A DNA stretch of 64,000 nt from Escherichia phage Esco_phi_B-01: sequence record OP292222.1. One strand, given 5' to 3'. Of the stretch, positions 2,477 through 62,200 are shown in pieces. The stretch's first letter is position 1. Each line of letters starts with the position of its first letter. A program made the translations under genes and the position numbers. Below the pieces are notes generated by a model, which was not told the origin of the DNA, searched no databases, and saw only the letters and a program-made list of their open reading frames with translations.

Positions 2477-2677
2477 ATGGAAATCGCAGGTTTTATTCTT
2501 CTGTACCTTGCATTAGGATTCATTACTGTTCTGATTGGCCGCAAACATATGGAAATTAGCTCAGGTAGCGAAGCAGTATTCGCTACCTTTATTTGGCCGG
2601 TGCTTGCTTTATTTGGAATAGTTTCTATTGTGACTTGGCCTTTCGCTAAATTCTATGAAAAATTATTTGGACTTTAA
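2477..2677 (+). CDS. small hydrophobic membrane protein (66 aa)
   Basis: ORF; two predicted hydrophobic helices. Confidence 0.5.
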   Translation: MEIAGFILLYLALGFITVLIGRKHMEISSGSEAVFATFIWPVLALFGIVSIVTWPFAKFYEKLFGL

Positions 2678-2678
2678 T

Positions 2679-3548
2679 ATGAACATTAAAACACGTAAAG
2701 AATACTCTATATACGACCATGACACGACTCGTCGTATCGCTATCGATCGGCTGGCCGACTTTGGTCATATTTGTAATGGTAATTATACTTATGGTGTAGG
2801 CCGTAAAGGGACTTATATTAGTTCTTTGAATGATTATTGCCGTAGCCCAGCTCATTTATTTGGTGCAACACTACGAGCTAATATTAAAGACCTCTTGGCT
2901 ACTGCAGGACGTATTTCTACGGTTCCTGTTAATATAAAGAATATTAATTTTACGGCTCGTAACCTAGTCATTAATATTCTGCCTGATGGTATTCAAGTTC
3001 GTTTCCGTCCTACTTCAAAAGGTAATAAGGCTCTTCGTGAAGCATTCGAAACCTTATTCAGAGAAGCAATGACTCGTATTAAGGCCGTAGAATCATATAA
3101 AGTTACAACCGATGAATATGCTGATTGTTCTGGACGGGCTGATGCAGTGTATTTTAATGTTAAACTAACTCGTGAATATCTTTTGTCTTATGCCCCTTAT
3201 CAACCCCAACAAAAGGACCCACAAATGGAACGTCGTATCTCTGCAGTATCATGTGACAGCGTAGGCCAGTATGCAGCCTATGACAAATTCAAAACCACAG
3301 CTGTGCCTAGTCCATTCAATTCAGAACCGTATCATTGGAAAATTAGACCTGATAATTCTTTGGTTGTTACTAACCCTACGATGAAACCTATCGAGAAGTA
3401 TCATGAGGACCACCTCCAGGAATCAATCCACCGTTTAAACGGTCAGATCGAAGATGAGAAAAAGAGTATTCAAGACGTATTGATTCGCATCAAGAATATG
3501 GAAATCCAGCGTGACAAGCTTCGCGCGGCAGTATTAGCTCTAAAATAA
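2679..3548 (+). CDS. hypothetical protein (approx 289 aa)
   Basis: ORF; start chosen at first ATG after upstream stop (track start 2655 overlaps previous gene). Confidence 0.5.
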   Translation: MNIKTRKEYSIYDHDTTRRIAIDRLADFGHICNGNYTYGVGRKGTYISSLNDYCRSPAHLFGATLRANIKDLLATAGRISTVPVNIKNINFTARNLVINILPDGIQVRFRPTSKGNKALREAFETLFREAMTRIKAVESYKVTTDEYADCSGRADAVYFNVKLTREYLLSYAPYQPQQKDPQMERRISAVSCDSVGQYAAYDKFKTTAVPSPFNSEPYHWKIRPDNSLVVTNPTMKPIEKYHEDHLQESIHRLNGQIEDEKKSIQDVLIRIKNMEIQRDKLRAAVLALK

Positions 3549-11817: not shown

Positions 11818-12435
11818 ATGAAATACATCACATACCTGACAATATATTCCGGGACTAAGCTTCCACCGTTTTATATAGGGTCCACCACTTTAGAGAAGCA
11901 TTTGAATGGATACCACGGAAGTGTCCTTTCTAAAGCGTATAAAGAAATCTATAAAAACGAGCTTTTAGAGCATCCTGAACTATTTGACTCATGTATTGTA
12001 AGTGAACATCCCACAAGAGAAGAGGCTTTAGAAGCTGAAAGAATGTACCAGTTAAGAACTGATGCAGCTCAAAATCCTTTATTCTTTAATAGGGCTATTG
12101 CCGCCCCTAAAGGGTTCTTCGGGCTTTCGCTACCTAAAGAGCATCACCCTCTTTACGGCTCTCATAATGCCAAAGGGTATATTCATTCCTATAATCCTGT
12201 TACATTAGAACAGACCTTTGCACCTACGGTCCCTGAAGGATATGTAGAAGGTCGTTCTCCTAATTATAAAGCATCTAGTCACAATAAGGGCAGGAAGTGG
12301 TATAATAACGGAATAGAACATAAACTGATTAATCCGTCTAATATTCCTGATGGATGGGTCAAAGGCAAACTTCCGGGCTCGGCTTCTAAAGCCGCCTCTA
12401 AAATGTGGGAACGAATACGTAATGAAAATTCTTAA
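11818..12435 (+). mobile_element. GIY-YIG (Seg-like) homing endonuclease gene
   Basis: N-terminal TIY ... FYIGST motif pair; C-terminal KGRKWYNNGIEHKLINPSNIPDGWVKG typical of Seg endonucleases; sits in the slot where T4 has alpha-gt. Confidence 0.75.
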
Positions 12436-21576: not shown

Positions 21577-21813
21577 ATGGAAGCTTTAATCGTTAGTGCT
21601 GGTGTTTTAGGATTCGGTTCTCTGGCTATTATGTTCATTGGTTACTTTTTACCATGGATTCTAGCTCTTTTGCGAGGCACCCGTAGCAATGTCGGAATCT
21701 TCTTCCTTAATCTCTTGTTAGGATGGACGATGATTGGTTGGGTAGTGGCTTTAATCTGGGCCATCGTCGCTGAACGTAAATCAAACGCACAAATCATTAT
21801 CGTTAAACAATGA
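21577..21813 (+). CDS. imm: superinfection immunity membrane protein Imm
   Basis: two hydrophobic helices; position downstream of 43 as in T4. Confidence 0.8.
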   Translation: MEALIVSAGVLGFGSLAIMFIGYFLPWILALLRGTRSNVGIFFLNLLLGWTMIGWVVALIWAIVAERKSNAQIIIVKQ

Positions 21814-21947
21814 AGATAATTATTTTATTTCTTATAATGACTGCCTTTACCGTTTATTGGGCAGTGGCAATTCCTCCAATGATTCCAACATTAATCATAG
21901 GATGGATTATTCTTATAGCACAAATTAAGTATAACTGTTTTAATTGA
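21810..21947 (+). CDS. small hydrophobic peptide (45 aa)
   Basis: ATGA overlap with imm stop; entirely hydrophobic. Confidence 0.35.
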   Translation: MKIIILFLIMTAFTVYWAVAIPPMIPTLIIGWIILIAQIKYNCFN

Positions 21948-21954
21948 GGATATT

Positions 21955-22455
21955 ATGAAAAAGTTAATTATCGCAATGAGTATGCTCCTATCAGGTTGCG
22001 CGGTCCAATACGGTGATGCAGTTTCGGCTGATGAAGTTGGTAAAGCTCGTATTGCAGCTGAACAGAAACAATTCGACGGCGAAATGAAATTCCGTGCCGG
22101 TTCTGGACTTGTGTATACCCGAGCTAATAATCAATGTGGTAATAACTGTGCAAAATATGCTCAAAGGGAAATCGAATTCCAACGTGAACAAGAGTCTAAG
22201 CGTGAAGAGGTACTAGCCAAACACCAGGCAGAAATGAAGCGCCAAGATGATTTGTACAAAAAGCAGAAACTGTATTCTATGTGTGTAAACCATATCAATC
22301 TACAGATTTCTGTCCATGAGGCTCGTTATTACGAAATGCTCGAAACCGAGAGCTTCGATAAAGCTCGTGATTATAAGAAACAAATCAACAAGCTTAAGAC
22401 CAAAGTGCCTGCTGCAGTAGAACAGTGCATGGAATACGGTAAAGATAAGATTTAA
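21955..22455 (+). CDS. predicted lipoprotein (signal peptide with lipobox LLSGC), coiled-coil rich
   Basis: N-terminal MKKLIIAMSMLLSGC. Confidence 0.6.
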   Translation: MKKLIIAMSMLLSGCAVQYGDAVSADEVGKARIAAEQKQFDGEMKFRAGSGLVYTRANNQCGNNCAKYAQREIEFQREQESKREEVLAKHQAEMKRQDDLYKKQKLYSMCVNHINLQISVHEARYYEMLETESFDKARDYKKQINKLKTKVPAAVEQCMEYGKDKI

Positions 22456-22515
22456 GCAATAGAAATTTATTAAAAATAGTGTATAATGTACCTACATTCA
22501 CTTGAGGAACAGATA

Positions 22516-24189
22516 ATGAAAAAGGTTGTTATTTTAGGCGCAGGTCTTGGCTCACGGTTGTATCCAATTACTAACGAAATCCCGAAGGTATTGGTTAACT
22601 ATAAACAACATACGGTATTAAAGCATTTGTATGATTTGTATAGTAACCAATCAGATGAAATTATTCTGGTTATTCACAGCAAATTTAACGACCTCGTTAA
22701 AGGCTATATTAAATCCATTAACATGATTACTGGTGATAAGCCTAAATTCACTATTCGTAACGTTGATGTTGCTAATGGTTCAGCTCATGCAATCGATTGC
22801 ATTGCCGAAGATATCATTGGCCATAATGTCCTGTTTAACTGGTGTGACATCATTCCTATCGGTCATAAAGTTGAATGGGGTAACGACTACTGTTATACCT
22901 ATGGAACTGACTGTCGTTTTACATTTGAAGAACCGTACTTACGTGAAATTGGTACTGGTGGCGGTGTAGTTGGTTTGTATCAGGTAGCCAATTGGACAGG
23001 TTTCGACCGTTCTAATTATGGTGAAGACCTTGCTGATAACCTGGATTCAATGGTCTATTTGACCGAACGTAAACTGGATTTTGTAGTTGATGTCGGTGAC
23101 AAATTGAAACTGGCTAAGGCCCATGAAGAATCTGAAATTAACCGTGAATTTAATAAATTAGAATTCACCGAGAATCTGGCTATTAAAGTACCAACTAACG
23201 AATTAGGTAAAGAAATTCAATCTAAAGAAATCAATTGGTATAATTCTATTGATTCTGAATTCGTTCCTAGCATTGTAGACTTTTCTCCAGGCGAATTCAT
23301 TAAAATGGAACGTATCTTTGGTCGAACCATGGCAGATGCCTACCGGTTTATGTCCAAAGAAACTAAAGTCCTCATGGTTTATAAGGTCATTAGTGCATTA
23401 CGTTCATTTGGTGGAACTATTGATAACCCGTCCGATGAGCAATGGTATTCCGATGTTAAGAAAGAAGTATTGGACAAGGTCCTTATTCGTAATGCTTCTA
23501 TTGCTGGATTGATTGAAGGCTTTGCTCCACAGGGCATTACCCATGTTAACGATTTCAAAGTAGGCGACCCTGAAAAACTTCTTCGCCATGCACTAGAAAT
23601 TCTGTCTGAACATAAAGAACCGTACCAACTTATTCATGGCGACCCGCACTACAGTAATATTATGCTGTCGGACGAAGGTGATATTAAAATCATCGACCCA
23701 CGTGGTTATTTCGGTAATAGTTCTAAAGGCCCTGCGATTTATGATGAAGCTAAGGTGCTTTATTCTATCGATGGCTATGACAAATTTAACTCAGACCCTC
23801 TATGGGGCGGATTAACTCGTAACGGAACTCGTGTATTCGTTGATATCGAAAAGATTATGCCTTTAGACGATATCCCTATGTGCACATTTAAGCACAAGCT
23901 CTGGATTGCTGTTATTTGGATGGCTCTGGCAGGTTACTTTAAGAATAACCCTCTGAAAGCTCTAGGTGCTTATTATAACGGTTTGTACCAACTGAGTGTG
24001 CTGCTGAAGCGGCATCCTCGTAAGCGTAAGCTTATTACGGGTGAATTTGTCGATGAAGTTCGTGACCCTATTACGGCTCAAATTATTACTCGTTGTCCTG
24101 ATAAGTGGGTTTTGCTTGACCAGGAAACTGGTGTAAAATATAAACCTACAGGTTCTACTGAACTCCACAAACAATGGAAGAAAATTTAA
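22516..24189 (+). CDS. bifunctional nucleotidyltransferase / protein-kinase-like phosphotransferase
   Basis: N-terminus ILGAGLGSRLYPIT...PKVLV (sugar-phosphate nucleotidyltransferase G-x-G-x-R signature); C-terminus HGDPHYSNIML ... IKIIDPRGYFG (Brenner HxDxxxxN + downstream D, APH/choline-kinase-like); start at ATG after SD gaggaa. Confidence 0.75.
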   Translation: MKKVVILGAGLGSRLYPITNEIPKVLVNYKQHTVLKHLYDLYSNQSDEIILVIHSKFNDLVKGYIKSINMITGDKPKFTIRNVDVANGSAHAIDCIAEDIIGHNVLFNWCDIIPIGHKVEWGNDYCYTYGTDCRFTFEEPYLREIGTGGGVVGLYQVANWTGFDRSNYGEDLADNLDSMVYLTERKLDFVVDVGDKLKLAKAHEESEINREFNKLEFTENLAIKVPTNELGKEIQSKEINWYNSIDSEFVPSIVDFSPGEFIKMERIFGRTMADAYRFMSKETKVLMVYKVISALRSFGGTIDNPSDEQWYSDVKKEVLDKVLIRNASIAGLIEGFAPQGITHVNDFKVGDPEKLLRHALEILSEHKEPYQLIHGDPHYSNIMLSDEGDIKIIDPRGYFGNSSKGPAIYDEAKVLYSIDGYDKFNSDPLWGGLTRNGTRVFVDIEKIMPLDDIPMCTFKHKLWIAVIWMALAGYFKNNPLKALGAYYNGLYQLSVLLKRHPRKRKLITGEFVDEVRDPITAQIITRCPDKWVLLDQETGVKYKPTGSTELHKQWKKI

Positions 24190-24572
24190 TGTCGTATCGA
24201 GTAGAAAATAAGCCACATTTATGTTTTGATATCGATAACACAATCACGATTTGGAACCATGACCGTGATTATGAGAACTTTAAACCGGACACCGAAATGG
24301 TGTCCATGATTAATAAGCTTTATGATGAAGGGTACGAGATTACATTGTTCACCGCGCGTGGCATGACTTCATGTGGCCCAGGTCGAATCTTGGTTGAAGT
24401 AGTTCCTGCCTTGGTTAAGAACCTTGAAAAAATTGGATTGAAATATCACAATTTGCTTACACATAAGCCGAGTTATACTTTTATCATCGATGACCGAGCA
24501 ATCCGTCCTGACCACTTTAAAGAAATGGTTCGTGAAGGAACTCTTGATGGTTATAAGGCCTATCATCCATGA
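24189..24572 (+). CDS. small HAD-superfamily phosphatase
   Basis: motif I FDIDNTIT (DxDxT), motif II LFTARG, motif IV IIDDR; alternative start 24174. Confidence 0.7.
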   Translation: MSYRVENKPHLCFDIDNTITIWNHDRDYENFKPDTEMVSMINKLYDEGYEITLFTARGMTSCGPGRILVEVVPALVKNLEKIGLKYHNLLTHKPSYTFIIDDRAIRPDHFKEMVREGTLDGYKAYHP

Positions 24573-25105
24573 ATCCAAAAATCATTGTTATAGACGGCCC
24601 GGATAATTCCGGGAAGTCCACTTTAATTAAAAATCTGTTATCCAATAAGAAATACCGCCTTATTGATTTTCCTAAAAAGATTAATGGCAAGTGTATTTCA
24701 TTAGGAACTGATAACGATAAGGCTTTAGTTGAAACTCTGTATAAGTTTTTAGACCCTAATTTCGTTTATATCCTTGACCGTGGTTATCCAAGTAATATTG
24801 TTTACTCAGGATTCCTTCGTGGTGAAATGGACCCTTATGTAGAACTGGAAGATTGGAAAGGGTTTAAATCTGAATTTAACGTTATCGAGGTTATTTTAAC
24901 TCGCAACCCATTAGACGAAGACTTCGAAGACGACCTTATTAAATTAACCGAAGATGAGTTCAACCTAACTATCCGGCAATACGAAACATGTTTTGAAAAC
25001 GTGTTTAAAATCTTAAATCATGACGGCCATAATAATTTGCTTAATGTTGATATGGTAGAATTAAAACGTCTGAACGAATATATTGAAAATAAGGTGAATA
25101 AATGA
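24569..25105 (+). CDS. thymidylate-kinase-like P-loop NMP kinase
   Basis: P-loop IVIDGPDNSGKST and DRGY..S..Y motif resembling Tmk DR(Y/H) region. Confidence 0.65.
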   Translation: MNPKIIVIDGPDNSGKSTLIKNLLSNKKYRLIDFPKKINGKCISLGTDNDKALVETLYKFLDPNFVYILDRGYPSNIVYSGFLRGEMDPYVELEDWKGFKSEFNVIEVILTRNPLDEDFEDDLIKLTEDEFNLTIRQYETCFENVFKILNHDGHNNLLNVDMVELKRLNEYIENKVNK

Positions 25106-25800
25106 AACACATTACCGCTGTTAGTTTTGAAAATGCATTTAAACAAATGAACGAAGAAATCCTGGAAGCTCCACAGTTTGCAGTTGATTCTCGTATCGGA
25201 CGTTGTTATGAAATTGGTTCTGCTTCGGTAGAAGTACTGGATGCAAGCACCTATAAATTCACCGACCCACGTATTAATCGTATTAGTTATGAATATGCCG
25301 AATCCTTTTGGAAATTTATGATTTCTGGTGGTACTGACGCTGCCGAAGCATTTAAGGAATACCCTAATGTTGCTAAGTTCATTGATAAGCCGAAAAGTGA
25401 CGTATTGCCTGCAAACTTCAACACTTTCTATGGACCTCGAATTGTGGCCCAACTCCCAGCCCTACTTAAAGAGCTTAAAGAAAAGGCTAACTCGCGAAGA
25501 GTTGTGTTCCAGATTCTCCAAGAACAAGACCAAGCCCTCCTTGATTCTGACGAATCCTTAGAATATCCGTGTACCGATTCGGTAACGTATTATATTCGTG
25601 ACGGACGTTTGTATGCACACACCCATATGCGTTCACAGAACTGCGCTGTTGTTATGCAGCTGGATTTCTATCTGCAGGGTAAACTGATGGCATTTATTGC
25701 TGAACAGTGTGGTGTCGGTTTAGGTACATATTCCCACACCATGGTAAGTGCACACGTGTTTGAACGCGATTTTGACTACGTCCGAGGTTTCCTGAAATGA
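25102..25800 (+). CDS. 42: deoxycytidylate hydroxymethylase (thymidylate synthase superfamily)
   Basis: SRR, catalytic Cys in PCTDS, YYIRDG, MRSQN, and Asp in QLDFY at the position that confers cytosine specificity in T4 gp42; Glu/Trp in AESFWKF. Confidence 0.82.
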   Translation: MKHITAVSFENAFKQMNEEILEAPQFAVDSRIGRCYEIGSASVEVLDASTYKFTDPRINRISYEYAESFWKFMISGGTDAAEAFKEYPNVAKFIDKPKSDVLPANFNTFYGPRIVAQLPALLKELKEKANSRRVVFQILQEQDQALLDSDESLEYPCTDSVTYYIRDGRLYAHTHMRSQNCAVVMQLDFYLQGKLMAFIAEQCGVGLGTYSHTMVSAHVFERDFDYVRGFLK

Positions 25801-26690
25801 GTTTGTTTATCGTTCCTATTTTCAGTATGCGTAGTTACGAAACAGGTGAATATGCCGTCCTTAAGGACGGCAATTTTCAACTCCATTTAAATCGTGCTCG
25901 TCCAGGTGATTATCTGGCTTATCCTAGAAATTCGAGCGATATCAAAGAATGCATTGAATTATTCCCGGAACTGAATTTCGTACCACTTTGGTATAAAGAA
26001 AATGCTTATGAAACCCGTAAACATTTCTGGTCTGAAAATGAGTTTGTAGTCGATTCACTAATCGAATACTACGATTGCTCAGGACTGGTAACTGATATCA
26101 CCGGTTATGATGGTGCTCACACTGTACAATTCAACTTTAATATCACAATGGACCCTGAAGTTCCTCGTTATTATATCGACGAGTTCATTGATATTGATGT
26201 GGCTTCAGTTGAACGTTCACTTTATACTACAGTCCTGAATCAATGCCAGAAAGACGTCCTGGTGTCACGAGGTGCATCCTCTGATAAGATTTTTGTAGAC
26301 CAAAAGGTAATTAATCCTGCAGTAATTGAGCGTTACTCTGAAGGTCTAGCGCCTATTAAAATTGATGGTATTTTCCATCCATTCCGTATTTCGGATAAGT
26401 GCTATCAATTCGAAAGAGTTGTAGACCAAGCTGCCGCTGAAGGTGCTCGTCTTTATATCACTGACCCGAATGATTCATTTAAGCGTGAAGACTATCGTCC
26501 TGATGTAGAGATTATTAAATTCAAACCGAGTAAGGTTGAATATTATCAAATTCTGAAATCAAGACCACATATCATTTATCATGAGAACCCAGGTTTAGTA
26601 TTCCATCCTGGTCTGGCTGAATTCATTTATTTCGGTGCCAATATTCATTCTGAATACGAAATGCCACGTTATGAGGACGTAGTATGCTAG
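25797..26690 (+). CDS. hypothetical protein (297 aa) occupying the beta-glucosyltransferase slot between 42 and uvsX
   Basis: ORF; no recognisable motif; position only. Confidence 0.55.
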   Translation: MSLFIVPIFSMRSYETGEYAVLKDGNFQLHLNRARPGDYLAYPRNSSDIKECIELFPELNFVPLWYKENAYETRKHFWSENEFVVDSLIEYYDCSGLVTDITGYDGAHTVQFNFNITMDPEVPRYYIDEFIDIDVASVERSLYTTVLNQCQKDVLVSRGASSDKIFVDQKVINPAVIERYSEGLAPIKIDGIFHPFRISDKCYQFERVVDQAAAEGARLYITDPNDSFKREDYRPDVEIIKFKPSKVEYYQILKSRPHIIYHENPGLVFHPGLAEFIYFGANIHSEYEMPRYEDVVC

Positions 26691-26816
26691 GTCCTCTATT
26701 GCTTTTTATAGGTTTGTTATTATTCTCTTTCGGAGCCTTGCTATTACTAGTGTGGCTCGAGAAACGAGAAGTTCGGAAGATAGTCGATAAGGCTATCAAC
26801 CGAGGAATTAAGTAAT
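26685..26816 (+). CDS. small membrane peptide (43 aa)
   Basis: hydrophobic ORF overlapping upstream stop. Confidence 0.35.
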
Positions 26817-33313: not shown

Positions 33314-33835
33314 ATGGCTCATTTTAATGAATGTTCTCAACTGATTGCCGGTGCCGATAAAGCTGAAGAAGCTTATTTTAATGCTCTGATTCACGAAGAT
33401 AAAGACCCTCTGCAGGTTATGCTTGATATGCAGAAATCTTTGCAGGTTCGTTTAGCTAAAGATAAGCCTGAATATAATCGTCATCCTGATGATTTGGCCA
33501 CTGCGGGTGAAGTTGTCGATTGGCTTCGCAACCAGAAAGATTATATTGATGACGAATTCCGTGAACTTCTGACTTCTCTTGGTGGTATGAGCAATGGTGA
33601 AAAAGATGCATCTGCAGTATGGAAGCCTTGGAAAGCTCAACATGCTGAACGTCGTGAAACCCTGATTAACGATTTGTCTCCTGAAGACCAGCTCGAAATT
33701 AAATTCGAAATGATTGATATTCTGCACTTTGTTCTGAATATGTTCCAGGGTCTTGGACTGACTGCTGAAGAAATCTTTAAACTGTATTATCTTAAAAATG
33801 CCGAGAACTTTGCTCGTCAAGACCGAGGTTATTAA
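33314..33835 (+). CDS. 56: dCTP/dUTP pyrophosphatase gp56 (MazG-like)
   Basis: strong similarity recalled to T4 gp56 (MAHFNEC..., DPLQVMLDMQ, CIDDEFRELLTSLG, EEIFKLYYLKN). Confidence 0.9.
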   Translation: MAHFNECSQLIAGADKAEEAYFNALIHEDKDPLQVMLDMQKSLQVRLAKDKPEYNRHPDDLATAGEVVDWLRNQKDYIDDEFRELLTSLGGMSNGEKDASAVWKPWKAQHAERRETLINDLSPEDQLEIKFEMIDILHFVLNMFQGLGLTAEEIFKLYYLKNAENFARQDRGY

Positions 33836-56406: not shown

Positions 56407-56867
56407 AACCCTTCAAAGAGCGTCTTGAATTATTAGACCTGGCTTTATCACGTGAGACCCCTGAAAGTCTTGCTGCTAAATTCCAGTCATATGGATACGC
56501 CAACTATACAGAAGAAGATGTTCTAAAAGAAGTTCCTGAAATCTGTTGGCAGATTGCTCATTGGAACAACAATGAAAAATATCAGCGACGAATTGTGTGT
56601 GCAGCCAACCGCTTTAAGTTAAAAGACGGCGGGACTTTGGTTATTCCTGGCGCTCGTCATTATTCAAAAGATATGGCGGAAGTGCTTGACCAAGTAAGTG
56701 ATAAACTTGTGTCAGAGCATGTTTGTGGTGATGACCAAGGATTTATCGACCAATATTCAAACTATTGGACTCGCGAAGAAGCAATGATTATTGCAACATA
56801 TGCTAATCAAGTTCGTATTGAACGTGGTGGTAGTGAAAAAGAACTTTACTCTGAGGACCTTTACTAA
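56403..56867 (+). CDS. hypothetical protein (154 aa)
   Basis: ORF. Confidence 0.55.
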
Positions 56868-57148
56868 TGAATCTTAAACAACTCCAGATTGATGCAATCG
56901 AAGCCCATATCAACCATATTAAACGTCTGAATGTTATGGTGGAAGACAACTGGGGAACTTATGTCAACCAACCGGCTTGGGATGCATTAGACCATGAATA
57001 TATAAAGAATATTAGCTCCAAGACAATCCATGGGAATATGGAAGGGTTGAAGCCGTTCCTACGTGATATGTATATTGCAACTAATAAAGAAATTATCAGT
57101 TCTCTTGAATATCAATTAAGGAAATTACGTGAACAATCTGGTAGCTAA
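56867..57148 (+). CDS. hypothetical protein (93 aa); Arn-like by position/size only
   Basis: location between motA and asiA, where T4 encodes arn. Confidence 0.45.
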   Translation: MNLKQLQIDAIEAHINHIKRLNVMVEDNWGTYVNQPAWDALDHEYIKNISSKTIHGNMEGLKPFLRDMYIATNKEIISSLEYQLRKLREQSGS

Positions 57149-57237
57149 GCACGATTTCAATAAGGCTTCGGTCCATAAGGACAAGAAGAAAAATTTTAAA
57201 GAGTCCAAGCGTAAGCAGAAACATAAGGGTAAAGGGT

Positions 57238-57402
57238 ATGAGTCATAACTTAGAGAATACCGTAACAGGTATGCGTACGCGTGAGCAGGAGTGCTTTGAG
57301 GAATTCCTAGGAGCTGATTTTAAGTTCCAGGAACCTATTGAAGAAATGTATCAGGAATATGTTGTACGGATGAAAAATCATGTGTACAACCTAGAAGAAT
57401 AG
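57238..57402 (+). CDS. hypothetical acidic small protein (54 aa)
   Basis: ORF. Confidence 0.35.
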   Translation: MSHNLENTVTGMRTREQECFEEFLGADFKFQEPIEEMYQEYVVRMKNHVYNLEE

Positions 57403-57460
57403 TGTTACAATATTCTTACTGAATAAATGAATGTCCTATTGAATACTTGAGTAAATTAAA

Positions 57461-57736
57461 ATGACTAAAATTGAAATCGTTTCCGAAATTGCTACTATTG
57501 TTTCCATTTTGATTAAAACGGATTGTGAAGACATCATGCAACGCCGTGATGAGTTTATTGCCTTTTTGAATGAGTTAGGTATTCGTAATGAACATGGAAA
57601 GGAACTTAACGGTCTATCTTTTAATAAACTCTTTAAGTCTTTAACTGAAGATGAACGTGATACTCTTATTGAGCAATTTAACGAAGGGTATGAAGATATA
57701 CACCGTTATCTAATGATGTATACCTCCAATTTTTAA
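57461..57736 (+). CDS. asiA: anti-sigma-70 protein AsiA
   Basis: similarity recalled to T4 AsiA (IVSEIATIVSILIK, FIAFLNE.G, LIEQFNEGYE..HRYL.MYT). Confidence 0.9.
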   Translation: MTKIEIVSEIATIVSILIKTDCEDIMQRRDEFIAFLNELGIRNEHGKELNGLSFNKLFKSLTEDERDTLIEQFNEGYEDIHRYLMMYTSNF

Positions 57737-58386
57737 CGAGTTCGACCTAATGTCCTCCCGGCCTGACCACACATAGACGAAAGTCTAGGAAATCCTAAAT
57801 CCGGTTTGGTATCGTACCAATATAATGATATCGAGCCGGCATAGATGTTATCCAAATTAAAAAACGGGCATGAAAACATATACGTGAATTGGGTTTTCTT
57901 CTTTGTAGGAAGGAACACAGTTTCTGTACTTGATTCAAAATAGTTTCCGTTAACTCCCGCCATATATTCTACTGACGTTTTGTCAATTGGAAACCCTCCC
58001 GTATTTTTTGCGTCTACCGTTTCCGGTAATTTACCCTCATAAGCAACCATATCCACAAAATAATTCATGTTGGTTGGTCTAAAAGAATATATTGCTGTGA
58101 AGTCTGCGCCTGAAGAAGAATGCACTATTCGGAGCTGCTCGATAGCCGCAATTTTAAATCTATTGTCCTGGTCTTGTCTAATCATTTCAGTATAAGAGGC
58201 ATAAGTTGTCTCTTTATAAAAGTTTAGAATATACTCGCCTTTATACCAAACTAATGCCATAAAGAACAATAATATTACGACTAGGACCCGGGAAAAAACT
58301 ACTTTCCCGGAAGAAGTATCTTTAAAAATTCTATCAAGAAGTCCAAAAAGTAGGTCTGATAATGAAAATCCTACTTTTGGTTCCAT
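57733..58386 (-). CDS. t: holin (T-type)
   Basis: similarity recalled to T4 holin t (LLFGLLDRIFKD, VVILLFFMA.VWY, YSFRP.N.NYFVD..AYEGKLP); converges on asiA. Confidence 0.9.
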   Translation of the reverse strand: MEPKVGFSLSDLLFGLLDRIFKDTSSGKVVFSRVLVVILLFFMALVWYKGEYILNFYKETTYASYTEMIRQDQDNRFKIAAIEQLRIVHSSSGADFTAIYSFRPTNMNYFVDMVAYEGKLPETVDAKNTGGFPIDKTSVEYMAGVNGNYFESSTETVFLPTKKKTQFTYMFSCPFFNLDNIYAGSISLYWYDTKPDLGFPRLSSMCGQAGRTLGRTR

Positions 58387-58404
58387 ACTTTTCTCCTTTA
58401 AAGA

Positions 58405-58412
58405 TATTTATA
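58405..58412 (-). promoter_or_regulatory. T4-type late promoter TATAAATA (minus strand) upstream of holin gene
   Basis: octamer on minus strand about 20 nt upstream of start, followed by SD aaggag. Confidence 0.5.
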
Positions 58413-58428
58413 ATTTAATACTTTCGTA

Positions 58429-59205
58429 TTATACCCAAGACCCGTAAATAGTACCTGTGGCACCCCATGAAGGACTATTACCACTTACAGCAGGCCCTGC
58501 AGCTCCAGGTGGAGACATGGATACACTGCGTCCATAACCCCAGCCGCCTGCAGCGCCTGCGTCACCGCCCCAACCGCCACCAAACTGTCCGCCGGCATCC
58601 CCGGGACCACCGGCCCCAGCATAACTAGCGTTACCGCCAGGTCTATAACTAGTTGCACCACCTAACCCGAATGGTCTGCCACCGCCACCGCCGCAGGTTG
58701 AGCCAGAAGGATAGCTATTTTGCAATGATGTAGCACCGCCACCACCGCCACCACCACAGATAACACCATAGTTCCATATGCGTAAACGCCCACCAATTTC
58801 ATTATAAATTGCTGTACCGCCTTGTTGGCCTCCACCGCCATTGGTTGCGCCATTACCACCGCGTCCCCACATATGAACCCCACCATGAATATTCAAAGTA
58901 ACGTATTCGTTAGGGATGTCACTATTCATAAAGAACAATGGAAGGTCTCTAGTATAAGATACTAAATCGCCGGTGATATTAAACACAATAGGTGCAGCGC
59001 CGGCTTCAAAACAACGGTCTCTAAACCAATACCCGTTGAAGTTGTGGTCCGCCCCAAGTGTGTGAATTATTTCAACAGACCGACCTATCATATTACTCAT
59101 CCAAAATGGAACACCCATTCTCAATCGTTGGGCTGCTCCTGCCATCCAAGGGTCCCCAGTTTGTACCCTTGCAGACCATCCTACCCACGGTCCTTCAACT
59201 GCCAT
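58429..59205 (-). CDS. 38: gp38 receptor-binding adhesin with glycine-rich motifs
   Basis: N-terminal region recalled as gp38-like ([37 protein letters not shown]); multiple poly-Gly runs; start at ATG with SD ggagg (track start 59217 is TTG). Confidence 0.85.
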
Positions 59206-59236
59206 ATAAACCTCCAAGGGGCCTAGGCCCCTCTTA

Positions 59237-62200
59237 TTATTTTAACAATGATTTAACTAAAGCTTTAAGTTCTTCAATCTCTGATTTCAATTCTGCTATT
59301 TCGGCAGTGTGCTCATTGATTGCAGCTGTATTTAAACCAATTACACCGTTATAGTTCAAACGAAGTAAAGCTTCACCATCAGGGTCACCTTCAACCAATT
59401 CAGGTAAAATAGCTTGAACTTCTTGGGCAATTAAACCAGCATTAGGTTCCCATTTCTGATTACCTTCCTCATCTAGGCCTCGCTTCTGCATATAAGTGTA
59501 ACCGTTAATTTTAGAAAGCTTCTGAGAAGCATTTTCAAATTTAACAAGGTCCTTTTTAACACGAATATCAGAGCGGACATAAACATCGCGGACAAACGTA
59601 GAATAGGCATCACTTTGTTGGACTAAATGCCCATAAGAAATAATAGCTCTTCCTGTTTCGGTCCACAAAGCACCGGTGGTATCCCAAAGACCTTGATGAA
59701 TCTGATAACCGGCTGACCATGAAGCAATATGAACACCATTGGCAACCATATTGATTCGGCCATCGCCACCATGAACTAATCCGGTATCATTATCACCAAT
59801 AACAAGACATGGTCCGGCCCACACAGGGTCACCGCCGCCAGCTGATAATCTTGCTCCAGTTTTAACCATGTTAGGAACAAACAGAGTTCCATTGTGGTGG
59901 AATTCATATATAGCTTGTGGGTCAGAACCGTTTTCTTGGTTACCTACACGAATAATACCTTGCGCCCATGTATTAGTGATGCGTCGCATGCCAAAATCAA
60001 CACCTGATATGTATCCTTCGTTAGTAATACCAGATTTTCCTTTGATAATTGGATAATAACTATCATTACCAACATTACCAAAATCAACAAATACCGGTGC
60101 TTCTTGCTTCCATTGGTTTCCCCAATCGCCAGCCTGGTGGGATGCCCAGACAGAGCCATTAATAAAAAGACGGTCCCTATTAAAATTAAAAGTGGCTGAA
60201 CCTTGTGGGTTTAAAGCAATATCGCCGTCTGCATTAATATTTACGCCTGAATTAGTTTGAAAACTATAAATTGATACAGCATTATCGGCACCGCCGTTAC
60301 CTACATACCAGTTATCAATACCAGCTTTTTGTCCTTTCATATAACCAGATTCGGTTGCAGCACTGTTAATAACAATAGCATCCGAGTTTGCATTCAGCGT
60401 TAAACGCCCGGTCATTGTGTCGCCGCCTTTACCTACACGAGTATTCACCGCTGCGTCAAGGTTAGTAGCACCGCTATACTTGTTCCAAATAGAACCTGCA
60501 ATATTACCATCAGTATTCATGAAAGCTGTACCGGCATATAAGCGGTTCTGAGCCATGAAGTTACCTTCTTTGGTAAAGCGCCAGTATTTTAATCCGGTTG
60601 TAACGCCATCGCCCTGCAAATCACCTTGAGCAACAATTCGGTATTCGCTCGTGGTGCGGTCCATACCTTGAGTAATAGTTACATTAGAAACTGTATTTTT
60701 CTGCTTGGTAATTGGATAGAATGCTTGGGTTGCTGCACCAAGTGTTTGATACAACGGAGCTTTAGTCGTATTCTGGTTGGCATAAGATGCACCATTACCA
60801 GCAGGGAATTCTAATACGCTGTTAGCAATAAAAGAAACTTGGTCAGCCGCTAAATTAGGGATTTTAACTTGACCGGTGTCTAACGTAATACTTAATGGGC
60901 GTAATGGGCCTAATCCGCCACTTTCGCCGGCATTAACATTGGTTGGGATAATATGCAGCTGGTCTTCTGAATTTCGGAAAATAACACCATATTTATCATT
61001 CCAAATACGAAGACCACTAGCAGCGCGGACTTTAATTTCATTGGAAACATACAGATTGCGTTTTAAGGATGTATCTTGACTGACAGACAATCCTTCGACG
61101 ATGTTCATCGTACCGTTTAAATAAGATTCGACTTTACCTGCTGTAGTTCGTTGAATATAGTGCATCCAGCCGGTAGCATCAGATGTTTCCAATACGTTTT
61201 TACGAGAACCACCTACCGTATTAAAAGTGTCACCCCAACCTTTGAGCTCTATATTATCAACTGAACTATATCCTGTGGTACTTCCTTTAAAAATCACAGT
61301 GGAAGCGTTACCACGACCGTCAATATTAACCGAACCACCACGGACTTCAACGTTACCAGGAGTAACCAACAACCCACCATCAGTGTTAACGTTTGTTACA
61401 CCTTTACCACGGAAATAATGGTGGTATTTACCACTCTGATGATAACCTAAAAGAGTCTGTCCATCACCAAAGCCGTTTTTATCATTAGTAGTATTAACAA
61501 TAACTAATGGATAGTTTTGAGCTGTAGGAAGAATTAAATCAGAACCGTTGGTTGAATAACCAGCAACTAACTGTTTAAGGCTTGTAACTTCAGTCGGAGT
61601 TGTAAGTAAAGTATAAGCTCCATTATTAACTGTATGGAACTGGCCGTCTTGTTTCCATTTCAAACCTGTGTTATTGTCACCAAGAGCAATTGAAGCCGTC
61701 CCTAATTCAGAATATCCTTTAGGGCCACCTGGAAGACCTACAGAAATAGAATGACCGGCTTTCAATCCACCGGACCAGGTAAACGACCAAAGATAAGTGT
61801 CTAAGCCATCTCCGGAATACCAGGCTATTCCGTCATTAACATTAACTTCGTGGAAAATACCTGCTCCTACAGCATTTCGCATAACACGGAGGTGGTTAAT
61901 AGCCGTTTCGCTTTCTGCCAATGGAGTGTTATTTGATAATGAAGATATATCGTAATCGCCGGCGGCTTTACCGTCGGTAATAACTTTATTAGTATAAATT
62001 ATTGGAGATTTTACCGATGTTCCACCAGAAATAGATGGAGCATAAAATAAACCGTCACCGTTGAATGCAAAAATATTAGATGTTGAATTAGTGTAATCCT
62101 GAACACGAACATTTAAGATTTGCTTGGTATCCCCAGCACGGTTTTGAGAATAAATTATGCCTCTTTCACGCGCATCAGCCAAATCCTGGAATCGAACGTG

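Follow-up and report, generated by a model that had tools for sequence, protein, structure and literature searches.

A compact five-gene cassette between imm and uvsX of a Dhakavirus, a probable version of the arabosyl-5-hydroxycytosine DNA modification system

The locus and its setting

The window analysed, 64,000 nts of the genome of Escherichia phage Esco_phi_B-01 (OP292222.1), is 98.5% identical to phage JS98 and is that of a Dhakavirus. Its gp43 is RB69-like, as had been noted in a first-pass annotation (84% identity to RB69 versus 61% to T4). The order of genes in T4 is imm, 42, beta-gt, segA, uvsX, with beta-gt between 42 and uvsX as that annotation had it. In the window, imm (21577-21813), a 45-aa homologue of T4 gp42.1 (21810-21947) and the gene for a lipobox protein (21955-22455; MKKLIIAMSMLLSGC) are followed by a cassette of five translationally coupled genes, 22516-26690, successive members of which overlap by 4 to 16 nts. 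A 43-aa transmembrane ORF (26684-26815) and uvsX (from 26893) come next. All are on the + strand, and every ORF that had been described there is present. The gap between the lipoprotein gene and the cassette contains a promoter-like site (TAGAAA-16-TATAAT, 22460..22487, + strand; 10/12 matches in a consensus scan), in a region whose total number of such sites is not above shuffled expectation.

The limits of the cassette are marked by Gaprivervirus VR7, of the sister genus, which keeps the flanks and lacks exactly these five genes. Because VR7 retains the lipoprotein without the cassette, the lipoprotein, earlier counted in the pathway, is a flank; on this comparison of sequences it and the 43-aa ORF are both conserved flanks outside the cassette. 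Among Dhakaviruses with 7% DNA difference the cassette proteins are still 90-98% identical. Each of them is matched in RB69 (in gene order gp53:52, gp51, gp45, gp48 and gp47:46) and in HY126, with 38-80% identity and E values of 1e-36 to 1e-149, far above chance.

The slot between genes 55 and 47 of the window holds homologues of a-gt.5 to a-gt.2 and, as the first-pass annotation recognised, a homing endonuclease (PHROG 10820, E 2e-92), with alpha-gt itself absent. That alpha-gt or beta-gt might lie elsewhere had been considered; neither was found within the window or across the whole JS98 genome. The whole JS98 genome also has no homologue of T4-type gp42 or of RB69 gp3, gp55 or gp50. A gp56 dCTPase/dUTPase, 100% identical to that of JS98, is encoded outside the cassette (33314..33835, + strand). 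From what is established for T4, this enzyme is needed to keep out canonical dC and to provide dCMP.

The modified base

The fourth gene of the cassette (25102..25800, + strand) encodes a thymidylate synthase homologue, its fold supported by Pfam PF00303, that had been taken for gp42, the dCMP hydroxymethylase, so that arabinose would be placed on hydroxymethylcytosine. Two features cited for that assignment are indeed retained, the catalytic Cys (C157) and the cytosine-specifying Asp (D188, at the ThyA-N177 position), and arabosyl-hydroxymethylcytosine was what was originally reported for RB69 (Thomas et al. 2018, PMC6024577). However, the protein has 80% identity to RB69 gp48 and only 25% to T4 gp42, it is likewise 80% identical to the HY126-series structures PDB 9iqu/9iqc, matches these and 9ir2 with E 2e-125, and its signature (E154, C157, N180 and D188) corresponds to ThyA L143E, C146, D169N and N177D. 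At the D169N position T4 gp42 has Asp, and the signature is present in 41 of the 42 thymidylate synthase genes that adjoin homologues of the cassette's glycosyltransferase (GT1). RB69 gp48 is a flavin/O2-dependent 5-hydroxy-dCMP synthase, as was shown with 18O2 (PMC13326640), and the DNA of RB69 and of Mosigvirus NP has been re-determined to contain ether-linked arabosyl-5-hydroxy-dC, not arabosyl-hydroxymethylcytosine (PMC13326640, PMC13390438). Identity to the proven RB69 synthase together with D169N therefore predicts 5-hydroxycytosine as the base and makes the protein a member of the flavin/O2-dependent clade; its identification as gp42 is rejected. The hydroxymethyl route as a whole, which also had NDP-arabinose made through free arabinose by a phosphatase and then a kinase, is very improbable.

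Sugar activation

The first cassette gene (22516..24189, + strand) specifies a fusion of an N-terminal sugar-1-phosphate nucleotidyltransferase and a C-terminal APH-type sugar-phosphate kinase. The fusion had been proposed from motifs and both halves are now matched above cut-off (PF00483, NTP_transferase, 33.8 bits; PF01636, APH, 26 bits), the former also by NCBIfam nucleotidyltransferase models; the GxGxR and HGDxxxxN/IDP motifs are retained. It is colinear end to end with HY126 AfhE (XAN60479, 43% identity) and has 44% and 41% identity to RB69 gp53 and gp52. Its start is most likely the ATG at 22516, giving 557 aa as in the JS98 annotation, since a GAGGA ribosome-binding site is found there and the ATG at 22486 falls inside the TATAAT box. 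From these homologies it is predicted to be an arabinose-5-phosphate 1-kinase and UDP-arabinofuranose pyrophosphorylase.

The second gene (24174..24572, + strand) encodes a 132-aa HAD protein with a DxDxT motif (FDIDNT) and an IIDD motif. It is 61% identical to RB69 gp51, matches PDB 9iqw of the HY126 series (E 8e-53) and 1xpj (5e-12), and is predicted by this relatedness to be an AfhF-like arabinose-1,5-bisphosphate 5-phosphatase. The bacterial ADP-heptose pathway, with its bifunctional HldE kinase/adenylyltransferase and the bisphosphate phosphatase GmhB, has the same logic: phosphorylation at C1, removal of the distal phosphate by a HAD enzyme and activation of the sugar-1-phosphate by a kinase-fused nucleotidyltransferase. 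The likeness is one of analogy and not of family membership, for the window kinase is APH-type whereas that of HldE is ribokinase-type, and the sugar and nucleotide differ too. Lee et al. did find a GmhB fold match for RB69 gp51. As the HY126 work of He et al. is summarised in PMC13326640, AfhE acts first, phosphorylating arabinose-5-phosphate directly to the 1,5-bisphosphate, and AfhF then takes off the 5-phosphate. The reverse order through free arabinose, which had been suggested for the window, does not agree with this. The derivation of arabinose from arabinose-5-phosphate does, as it does with what is shown or proposed for the RB69, HY126 and DLP3 clusters (PMC6024577, PMC13326640).

Some annotations would suggest a quite different role, in the synthesis of capsule or LPS sugars for the host surface or as an auxiliary metabolic module, unrelated to DNA. 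Homologues carry the labels 'capsule biosynthesis protein' and 'phosphoheptose isomerase', and among NCBIfam models the one nearest to the HAD protein, TIGR01689 (1.3e-14), describes a capsule-biosynthesis phosphatase. Such labels are automatic transfers, however, and the sugar genes are coupled to, and universally syntenic with, those of a dCMP-modifying thymidylate synthase homologue and a nucleotide kinase, in a region of replication genes. DNA modification has been shown for homologous clusters (PMC13326640), and a surface or auxiliary metabolic function is scarcely credible.

Which sugar is activated deserves more weight. The fusion has only 43% identity to HY126 AfhE and the Tmk-like kinase only 38% to RB69 gp45; both belong to a separate clade that is always without a phage isomerase, which counts against the favoured explanation, and arabinose is for that reason a predicted sugar of the fusion. 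Dhakavirus, Klebsiella phages of the Marfa type and Proteus Bragavirus Pm5461 form the lineage without an isomerase; their AfhE-like proteins are 72-100% identical to one another and only 42-44% to HY126 AfhE. In every locus that does have an isomerase, distant Acinetobacter phages included, the identity to HY126 AfhE is 50-96% and that to the window's fusion 41-46%. The thymidylate synthase homologue, GT1 and HAD protein have no such split, it is precisely in this module that Pm5461 differs from phiP4-3, a related Proteus phage, and the pentose configuration in phage Thanatos was left open in its paper (PMC12838424). The lineage could then place on 5-hydroxycytosine, with the same architecture, a pentose isomer other than D-arabinofuranose, activating a pentose-5-phosphate abundant in the host, for example ribose-5-phosphate. 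Against this, the GT1 of either lineage, which is bound to recognise the donor sugar, shares 67-70% identity with its Mosigvirus counterpart, and the HAD enzyme is close to RB69 gp51. All the hosts concerned make arabinose-5-phosphate for Kdo synthesis, so that a phage isomerase is dispensable, and the correlation of AfhE type with isomerase is a single phylogenetic event, the two genes being adjacent and so expected to transfer together anyway. Another sugar is unlikely, and arabinose is preferred.

Nucleotide kinase and glycosyltransferase

The third gene (24569..25105, + strand) had been included in the cassette as a Tmk-like P-loop kinase, and it belongs there, though as a nucleotide-type and not a sugar kinase. 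Its motifs are Walker A (GPDNSGKST) and DRG-Y, and it matches PHROG 761 'thymidylate kinase'. Thymidylate kinases, YorR, dNKs and PPK2 resemble the fold of its AF2 model (pLDDT 85.6) weakly. It accompanies the thymidylate synthase-GT1 pair in nearly all of 45 related loci, and is most likely a dedicated kinase, still putative, for 5-substituted dCMP (5-hydroxy-dCMP). The 297-aa product of the last gene (25797..26690, + strand), earlier described as of unknown fold, is a GT-B glycosyltransferase, predicted to be the first (base-proximal) arabinosyltransferase on 5-hydroxycytosine. Counting against this, Lee et al. saw single transferases inactive on 5hoC-DNA, and they left both DNA and a nucleotide as candidate acceptors of the first sugar. 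Homologues of gp3, the second transferase, are confined to Mosigvirus-type and Acinetobacter phages.

A proposed pathway

By homology to the experimentally studied RB69, HY126 and DLP3 proteins, we infer the following mechanism. dCMP supplied by gp56 would be hydroxylated at C5 by the thymidylate synthase homologue with flavin and O2; the 5-hydroxy-dCMP would be phosphorylated by a T4 gp1-type dNMP kinase, probably with the Tmk-like kinase, and polymerised in place of dC. In parallel, D-arabinose-5-phosphate would be phosphorylated at C1 by the fusion, the HAD enzyme would strip the 5-phosphate from the bisphosphate (free arabinose not being an intermediate), and the N-terminal domain of the fusion would make UDP-arabinofuranose, from which the GT-B enzyme would transfer arabinose to the 5-hydroxyl. 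DNA so modified would be protected against restriction enzymes and Cas nucleases. Of the earlier proposal, a phage-encoded route to an NDP-pentose and transfer from it to a modified cytosine are supported, and the reasoning on how the sugar is activated holds for the most part; the base, the order of steps and the membership of the cassette do not.

Relation to known systems

The product of the RB69/HY126 system is given as arabinosylated 5-hydroxycytosine by Lee 2026 (citing He 2026; Thomas 2018). The Mosigvirus cluster (RB69 gp45-gp55 plus gp3; in HY126 the Afh proteins AfhE, AfhF, 5hodCMP synthase and glycosyltransferases) shares all five proteins with the window, lies, as there, in the interval from gene 43 to uvsX, and has a GT1 gene directly after that for the synthase. 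It differs in having an arabinose-5-phosphate isomerase (gp55), the U32-family gp50, gp49 and the second transferase, and in its Tmk-like gene being after GT1 instead of between the HAD and synthase genes; AfhE and Tmk are the strongly diverged members. Its product is di-arabosylated, that predicted for the window mono-arabosylated.

The tri-arabosyl-5-hydroxycytosine system of Acinetobacter phage DLP3 (gp76-gp83) likewise has the D169N synthase-GT1-Tmk triad with AfhE-like and HAD genes (PMC13326640), a core seen also in the Acinetobacter phages among the related loci, but adds two more gp3-type transferases and its own isomerase. Nearest to the predicted window product is that of Shewanella phage Thanatos (TH1_060-TH1_063), called mono-arabosylated by Lee et al., where a lone GT1-type transferase adjoins the synthase homologue and there is an AfhE-like 561-aa fusion (PMC12838424, PMC13326640). 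Host and phage are distant, however, and the Thanatos authors gave the GT1 homologue UDP-xylose pyrophosphorylase activity.

The glucosyl-hydroxymethylcytosine system of T4 (gp42, alpha-gt, beta-gt, gp56 and gp1) is folate-dependent hydroxymethylation, whereas the window reaction would be hydroxylation, with the sugar ether-linked straight to the C5 oxygen and neither T4 glucosyltransferase involved. Unlike in T4, the host does not have the sugar donor among its metabolites, so that its synthesis falls to the phage.

Dhakaviruses are listed as carriers of the cluster in PMC13326640, and no published chemical analysis of their DNA was found in the literature. By homology, there is a good probability that in this cassette Dhakaviruses have their own version of the published 5-arabosyl-5-hydroxycytosine system. 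The window has no arabinose-5-phosphate isomerase, U32 gene or second transferase. We predict that the one transferase gives a mono-arabosylated product and that, for want of a phage isomerase, the arabinose-5-phosphate comes from host KdsD/GutQ. The system as such is already known, its anti-restriction pathway having been published, and the cassette is a compact, minimal version of it.

Extent and conservation of the cassette

The stretch 21955-26816 is 98.5% identical to its counterpart in Escherichia phage JS98 (Dhakavirus, Tevenvirinae) and 93-98% identical to that in about 50 further records. In whole-window BLAST, JS98 is colinear with the window save for a small number of indels and a tail-fibre region that has diverged. 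The stretch 56410-62000 corresponds to JS98 arn.3 to gene 37 and includes asiA, t, a gene 38-like adhesin and the distal tail-fibre gene 37; its identity to JS98 is 79-85%, against 94-99% over most of the remaining window, and probably reflects host-range divergence.

The observation of the first-pass annotation, that the imm-42-uvsX interval carries an enzyme cassette foreign to T4, is confirmed. All of the open reading frames it had proposed were recovered on the plus strand at unchanged coordinates, the T4 interval does read imm, 42, beta-gt, segA, uvsX, and gp43 is RB69-like as it had held (84% identity to RB69, 61% to T4). The five cassette genes overlap one another by 4 to 16 nt, and each of their products has a one-to-one counterpart in the RB69 block between gene 43 and uvsX (pairwise BLASTP). 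Across Dhakaviruses whose DNA differs by about 7%, the cassette proteins are 90-98% identical. A scan for promoters and terminators gave an overall result no better than that for shuffled sequence.

The boundaries are given by VR7, a member of the sister genus Gaprivervirus, in which the order is 43, imm, 42.1, a lipoprotein homologue, a small transmembrane ORF and uvsX, with the cassette missing. The window and VR7 align at the DNA level up to about 22250, inside the lipoprotein gene, and again from 26830. Since VR7 keeps the flanks with nothing between them, the module, as judged from this alignment, is 22456-26683 and the lipoprotein gene is flank. Retention of the lipoprotein gene in place in this cassette-less phage rules it out as a member of the pathway, and a 43-aa transmembrane ORF, found at the same place in VR7, is ruled out as part of the unit on the same grounds.

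The 166-aa lipoprotein (21955-22455) is basic and Cys-rich, has the lipobox LSGC, belongs to PHROG 1754 and is encoded directly after imm and gp42.1. This gene position suggests a second superinfection-exclusion function or an envelope function. Its homologue in cassette-less Gaprivervirus is 55% identical, and several other genera have homologues of about 30% identity beside their isomerase gene. The 43-aa single-pass membrane ORF (26684-26815) overlaps the end of the transferase gene and is unannotated in JS98; its homologue (…RKIVERAINRG…) precedes uvsX in VR7.

The acceptor base

The 232-aa product of 25102-25800 is a thymidylate-synthase homologue (Pfam) with 80% identity to RB69 gp48 (pairwise BLASTP) and only 25% to T4 gp42, and it matches PDB entries 9iqu, 9iqc and 9ir2 at E 2e-125. 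Lee et al. (2026) have shown by NMR and MS that the modified bases of RB69 and DLP3 are ether-linked, arabosylated forms of 5-hydroxycytosine, that gp48 binds flavin and forms 5-hydroxy-dCMP with O2, and that enzymes of its kind are marked by Asn at the position of ThyA residue 169 (PMC13326640). A paper on the Durham collection independently states that RB69 had been wrongly assigned a hydroxymethylated base (PMC13390438).

Residue equivalences were taken from an alignment of E. coli ThyA, T4 gp42, RB69 gp48, the HY126 enzyme and the window protein. ThyA L143 corresponds to E154, the catalytic C146 to C157, D169 to N180 (in an ‘MRSQN’ motif) and N177 to D188, the last being the change that specifies dCMP. 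The catalytic Cys and cytosine-specifying Asp from which hydroxymethyl-dCMP had been expected are thus indeed present, but these two residues leave hydroxymethylation and hydroxylation undistinguished. It is N180 that tells the two apart, T4 gp42 having Asp there. When 45 viral loci encoding a homologue of the cassette glycosyltransferase (GT1) were fetched and 42 adjacent thymidylate-synthase-family genes compared, the four-residue signature, including Asn at ThyA-169, was present in 41. JS98 has no gene of this family other than the homologue and td (tblastn, E <= 0.1). From the 80% identity and the diagnostic residue we infer that the acceptor base is 5-hydroxycytosine and not the hydroxymethylcytosine first supposed, and that the enzyme is a flavin-bound, O2-dependent 5-hydroxy-dCMP synthase.

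Sugar activation

The first cassette gene (22516-24189) encodes a 557-aa fusion of an N-terminal NTP_transferase domain (PF00483) and a C-terminal APH-type kinase domain (PF01636), both above Pfam cut-offs. Its most likely start is the ATG at 22516, which is preceded by a GAGGA ribosome-binding site; an upstream ATG is disfavoured because it lies inside a TATAAT box. The protein is colinear over its full length with HY126 XAN60479 (43% identity), and by pairwise BLASTP it is 44% and 41% identical to RB69 gp53 and gp52, two of the RB69 split genes that are intact in HY126. Its domain architecture is that of AfhE, and we infer from this kinship a specificity for D-arabinose-5-phosphate and UTP. 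The next gene (24174-24572) encodes a 132-aa HAD protein with FDIDNT (DxDxT) and IIDD motifs that matches the capsule-biosynthesis HAD phosphatase family. It is 61% identical to RB69 gp51 and matches PDB 9iqw (E 8e-53), from the same deposition series as the synthase matches. By motifs and homology it belongs with the AfhF-type phosphatases. Sequence search of the PDB gave no close structure for the fusion, for GT1 or for the Tmk-like kinase.

Arabinose was reported in RB69 DNA by Thomas et al. (2018), who proposed ORF53_52c and ORF055c for UDP-arabinose synthesis (PMC6024577). According to the account of He et al. (2026) given by Lee et al. (2026), HY126 AfhE turns arabinose-5-phosphate into the 1,5-bisphosphate and, later on, produces UDP-arabinose, and AfhF takes off the 5-phosphate between these two AfhE steps (PMC13326640). 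Homology to the HY126 and RB69 enzymes supports the part of the first-pass annotation that had the phage making an NDP-pentose and using it with a transferase. The base it chose does not stand, nor does its phosphatase-first order, as in the HY126 scheme so relayed the kinase step comes first.

The transferase and the number of sugars

The 297-aa product of 25797-26690, earlier described as of unknown fold, is recognisable as a two-Rossmann GT-B protein. In an AlphaFold model built from 75 homologues the mean pLDDT is 95.3, and Foldseek concurs. It is 70% and 65% identical to RB69 gp47 and gp46 (pairwise BLASTP) and 67% identical, over the full length, to the intact HY126 counterpart. The series that holds 9iqu and 9iqw also holds 9iqz, ‘phage HY126 glycosyltransferase’. 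The gene overlaps that of the synthase upstream by 4 nt, and this order is kept in essentially all 45 related loci. The protein is a compact GT-B enzyme, predicted to act, like RB69 gp46:47 and DLP3 gp79, as the base-proximal DNA arabinosyltransferase (UDP-Araf to 5-hydroxycytosine).

The complete Mosigvirus-type cluster gives di-arabosylation, with its own precursor supply; the window differs from it in having neither the gp55 isomerase nor a gp3-type GT4 arabinosyltransferase. With tblastn at E <= 0.1, T4 alpha-gt, T4 beta-gt, T4-type gp42 and RB69 gp3 had no match in the window or the JS98 genome, only the synthase homologue and td scoring. The slot between 39 and rIIA, checked for a second transferase of gp3 type, holds only a 107-aa DUF7367 protein, and gp3 homologues are limited to Mosigvirus-type and Acinetobacter phages. 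A Pfam scan of ten larger uncharacterised ORFs of JS98 and the window gave no hidden second glycosyltransferase; the other 297-aa ORF (2655-3548) is DUF7235. Because a second transferase is absent, a single arabinose per base is predicted, as reported for Thanatos, which like the window has one GT1-type gene.

The T4 glucosyl-hydroxymethylcytosine system requires a folate-dependent dCMP hydroxymethylase, with Asp at ThyA-169, plus alpha- and/or beta-glucosyltransferase. The window does not match it: Asn occupies that position, and the canonical glucosyltransferases are encoded neither in the window nor in JS98. Between 55 and 47 lies, as first noted, a homing endonuclease gene in place of alpha-gt (PHROG 10820, E 2e-92). 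This gene (11818-12435, between a-gt.2 and gene 47; PHROG 10820/314, weak GIY-YIG match) is missing from JS98, which has 47.1 there and is reported to be without any homing endonucleases.

Sugar supply without a phage isomerase

The arabinose-5-phosphate isomerase (RB69 gp55) had no tblastn match in the window or the whole JS98 genome, and the 137 isomerase matches in Escherichia phages all belong to the Mosigvirus-type set. In the host, arabinose-5-phosphate is produced for Kdo synthesis by KdsD and GutQ, and this pool could supply the phage. The isomerase is also absent from Klebsiella phage Marfa-type loci and from Proteus phage Pm5461. In isomerase-less loci, fusion and Tmk-like kinase group in a clade of their own, whose members are 72-100% identical to one another but only 42-44% (fusion) and 36-42% (kinase) identical to HY126; all isomerase-bearing loci, even those of Acinetobacter phages, are closer to HY126. 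Among the loci compared (L011-L053) the window fusion clade never co-occurs with a phage isomerase. That this lineage uses a different sugar phosphate would fit such a split, and is unlikely. The synthase, GT1 and HAD proteins have no isomerase-linked division, and the fusion/kinase split may be a matter of history only. It is precisely in the fusion/Tmk-like kinase module that the related Proteus phages Pm5461 and phiP4-3 differ.

Many related cassettes have a Peptidase_U32-family gene (PF01136, 42 bits; weak UbiU match) between the HAD and synthase genes, as in RB69 (gp50, L002:4493-5662) and Pm5461 (L056:6338-7504). In Pm5461 it is followed, just before the 5-hydroxy-dCMP synthase gene, by a type II chorismate mutase gene (L056:7742-8128; PF01817, 46.8 bits). 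The U32 proteins TrhP, RlhA and UbiU/V are hydroxylases that depend on prephenate and not on O2. By analogy, U32 plus chorismate mutase resembles a way of making 5-hydroxycytosine anaerobically. In Lee et al., gp50 bears only the label ‘sugar or heterocycle reductase’ (PMC13326640), and a literature search for phage U32 proteins with prephenate yielded nothing relevant. Neither gp50 nor gp49 has a tblastn match in the window or JS98. As the U32 module is missing, 5-hydroxycytosine synthesis in the window phage may depend on O2.

The Tmk-like kinase and the timing of glycosylation

The 178-aa P-loop protein (24569-25105) has Walker A and DRG-Y motifs, is named thymidylate kinase by PHROG and is 38% identical to RB69 gp45 (pairwise BLASTP). 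Its model (pLDDT 85.6) has weak, family-level fold matches to thymidylate kinases, YorR, deoxynucleoside kinases and PPK2. The simplest role would be that of a dedicated 5-hydroxy-dCMP kinase.

Synthase, GT1 and Tmk-like kinase occur together in nearly all 45 related loci. About a dozen of these (metagenomic, from IMG/VR; L037-L050), with a D169N synthase, have no AfhE-like, HAD or isomerase gene in the available flanks; in these, a sugar nucleotide supplied by the host may serve to glycosylate 5-hydroxycytosine. Persistence of the triad across the related loci, these included, hints faintly at another order of events, in which GT1 arabosylates free 5-hydroxy-dCMP before replication, the Tmk-like kinase phosphorylates the glycosylated dNMP, the general gp1 kinase being unable to handle so bulky a substrate, and the polymerase incorporates the glycosylated dCTP analogue. 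Equally faint hints in the same direction come from the strong acidity of the GT1 family (median pI 5.2, against 9.05 for T4 beta-gt; the window protein has pI 4.9 and net charge -17) and from the co-divergence of the kinase with the sugar-activating AfhE in the isomerase-less lineage. Lee et al. found single transferases inactive on 5-hydroxycytosine-containing DNA and left open the stage of sugar addition (PMC13326640), and growth of Thanatos is nearly abolished when its AfhE homologue is lost (PMC12838424). Taken as a whole, this sequence of events is unlikely; if true, it would be the first known pre-replicative nucleotide glycosylation. A kinase dedicated to 5-hydroxy-dCMP remains the simpler assignment.

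Implications for Dhakaviruses

The system itself is already known, and Lee et al. name Dhakaviruses among the lineages that carry the cluster (PMC13326640). A literature search found no chemical data on Dhakavirus DNA. The practical value for the window is correct annotation: public records of JS98-type phages label the cassette genes “hypothetical”, “thymidylate kinase”, “phosphoheptose isomerase” or “dCMP hydroxymethylase”. Petrov et al. (2010) reportedly asked why RB69 and JS98 have a gene 42 homologue yet no glucosyltransferase. The work of 2018 to 2026 provides the answer, that RB69 makes, and JS98 is predicted to make, glycosylated 5-hydroxycytosine.

The minimal cassette is predicted to be the smallest gene set that should suffice for setting up the modification in E. 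coli. Dhakaviruses, which are present in phage-therapy collections, should carry mono-arabosyl-5-hydroxycytosine, and this would affect their sequencing, restriction mapping, CRISPR engineering and sensitivity to type IV restriction.
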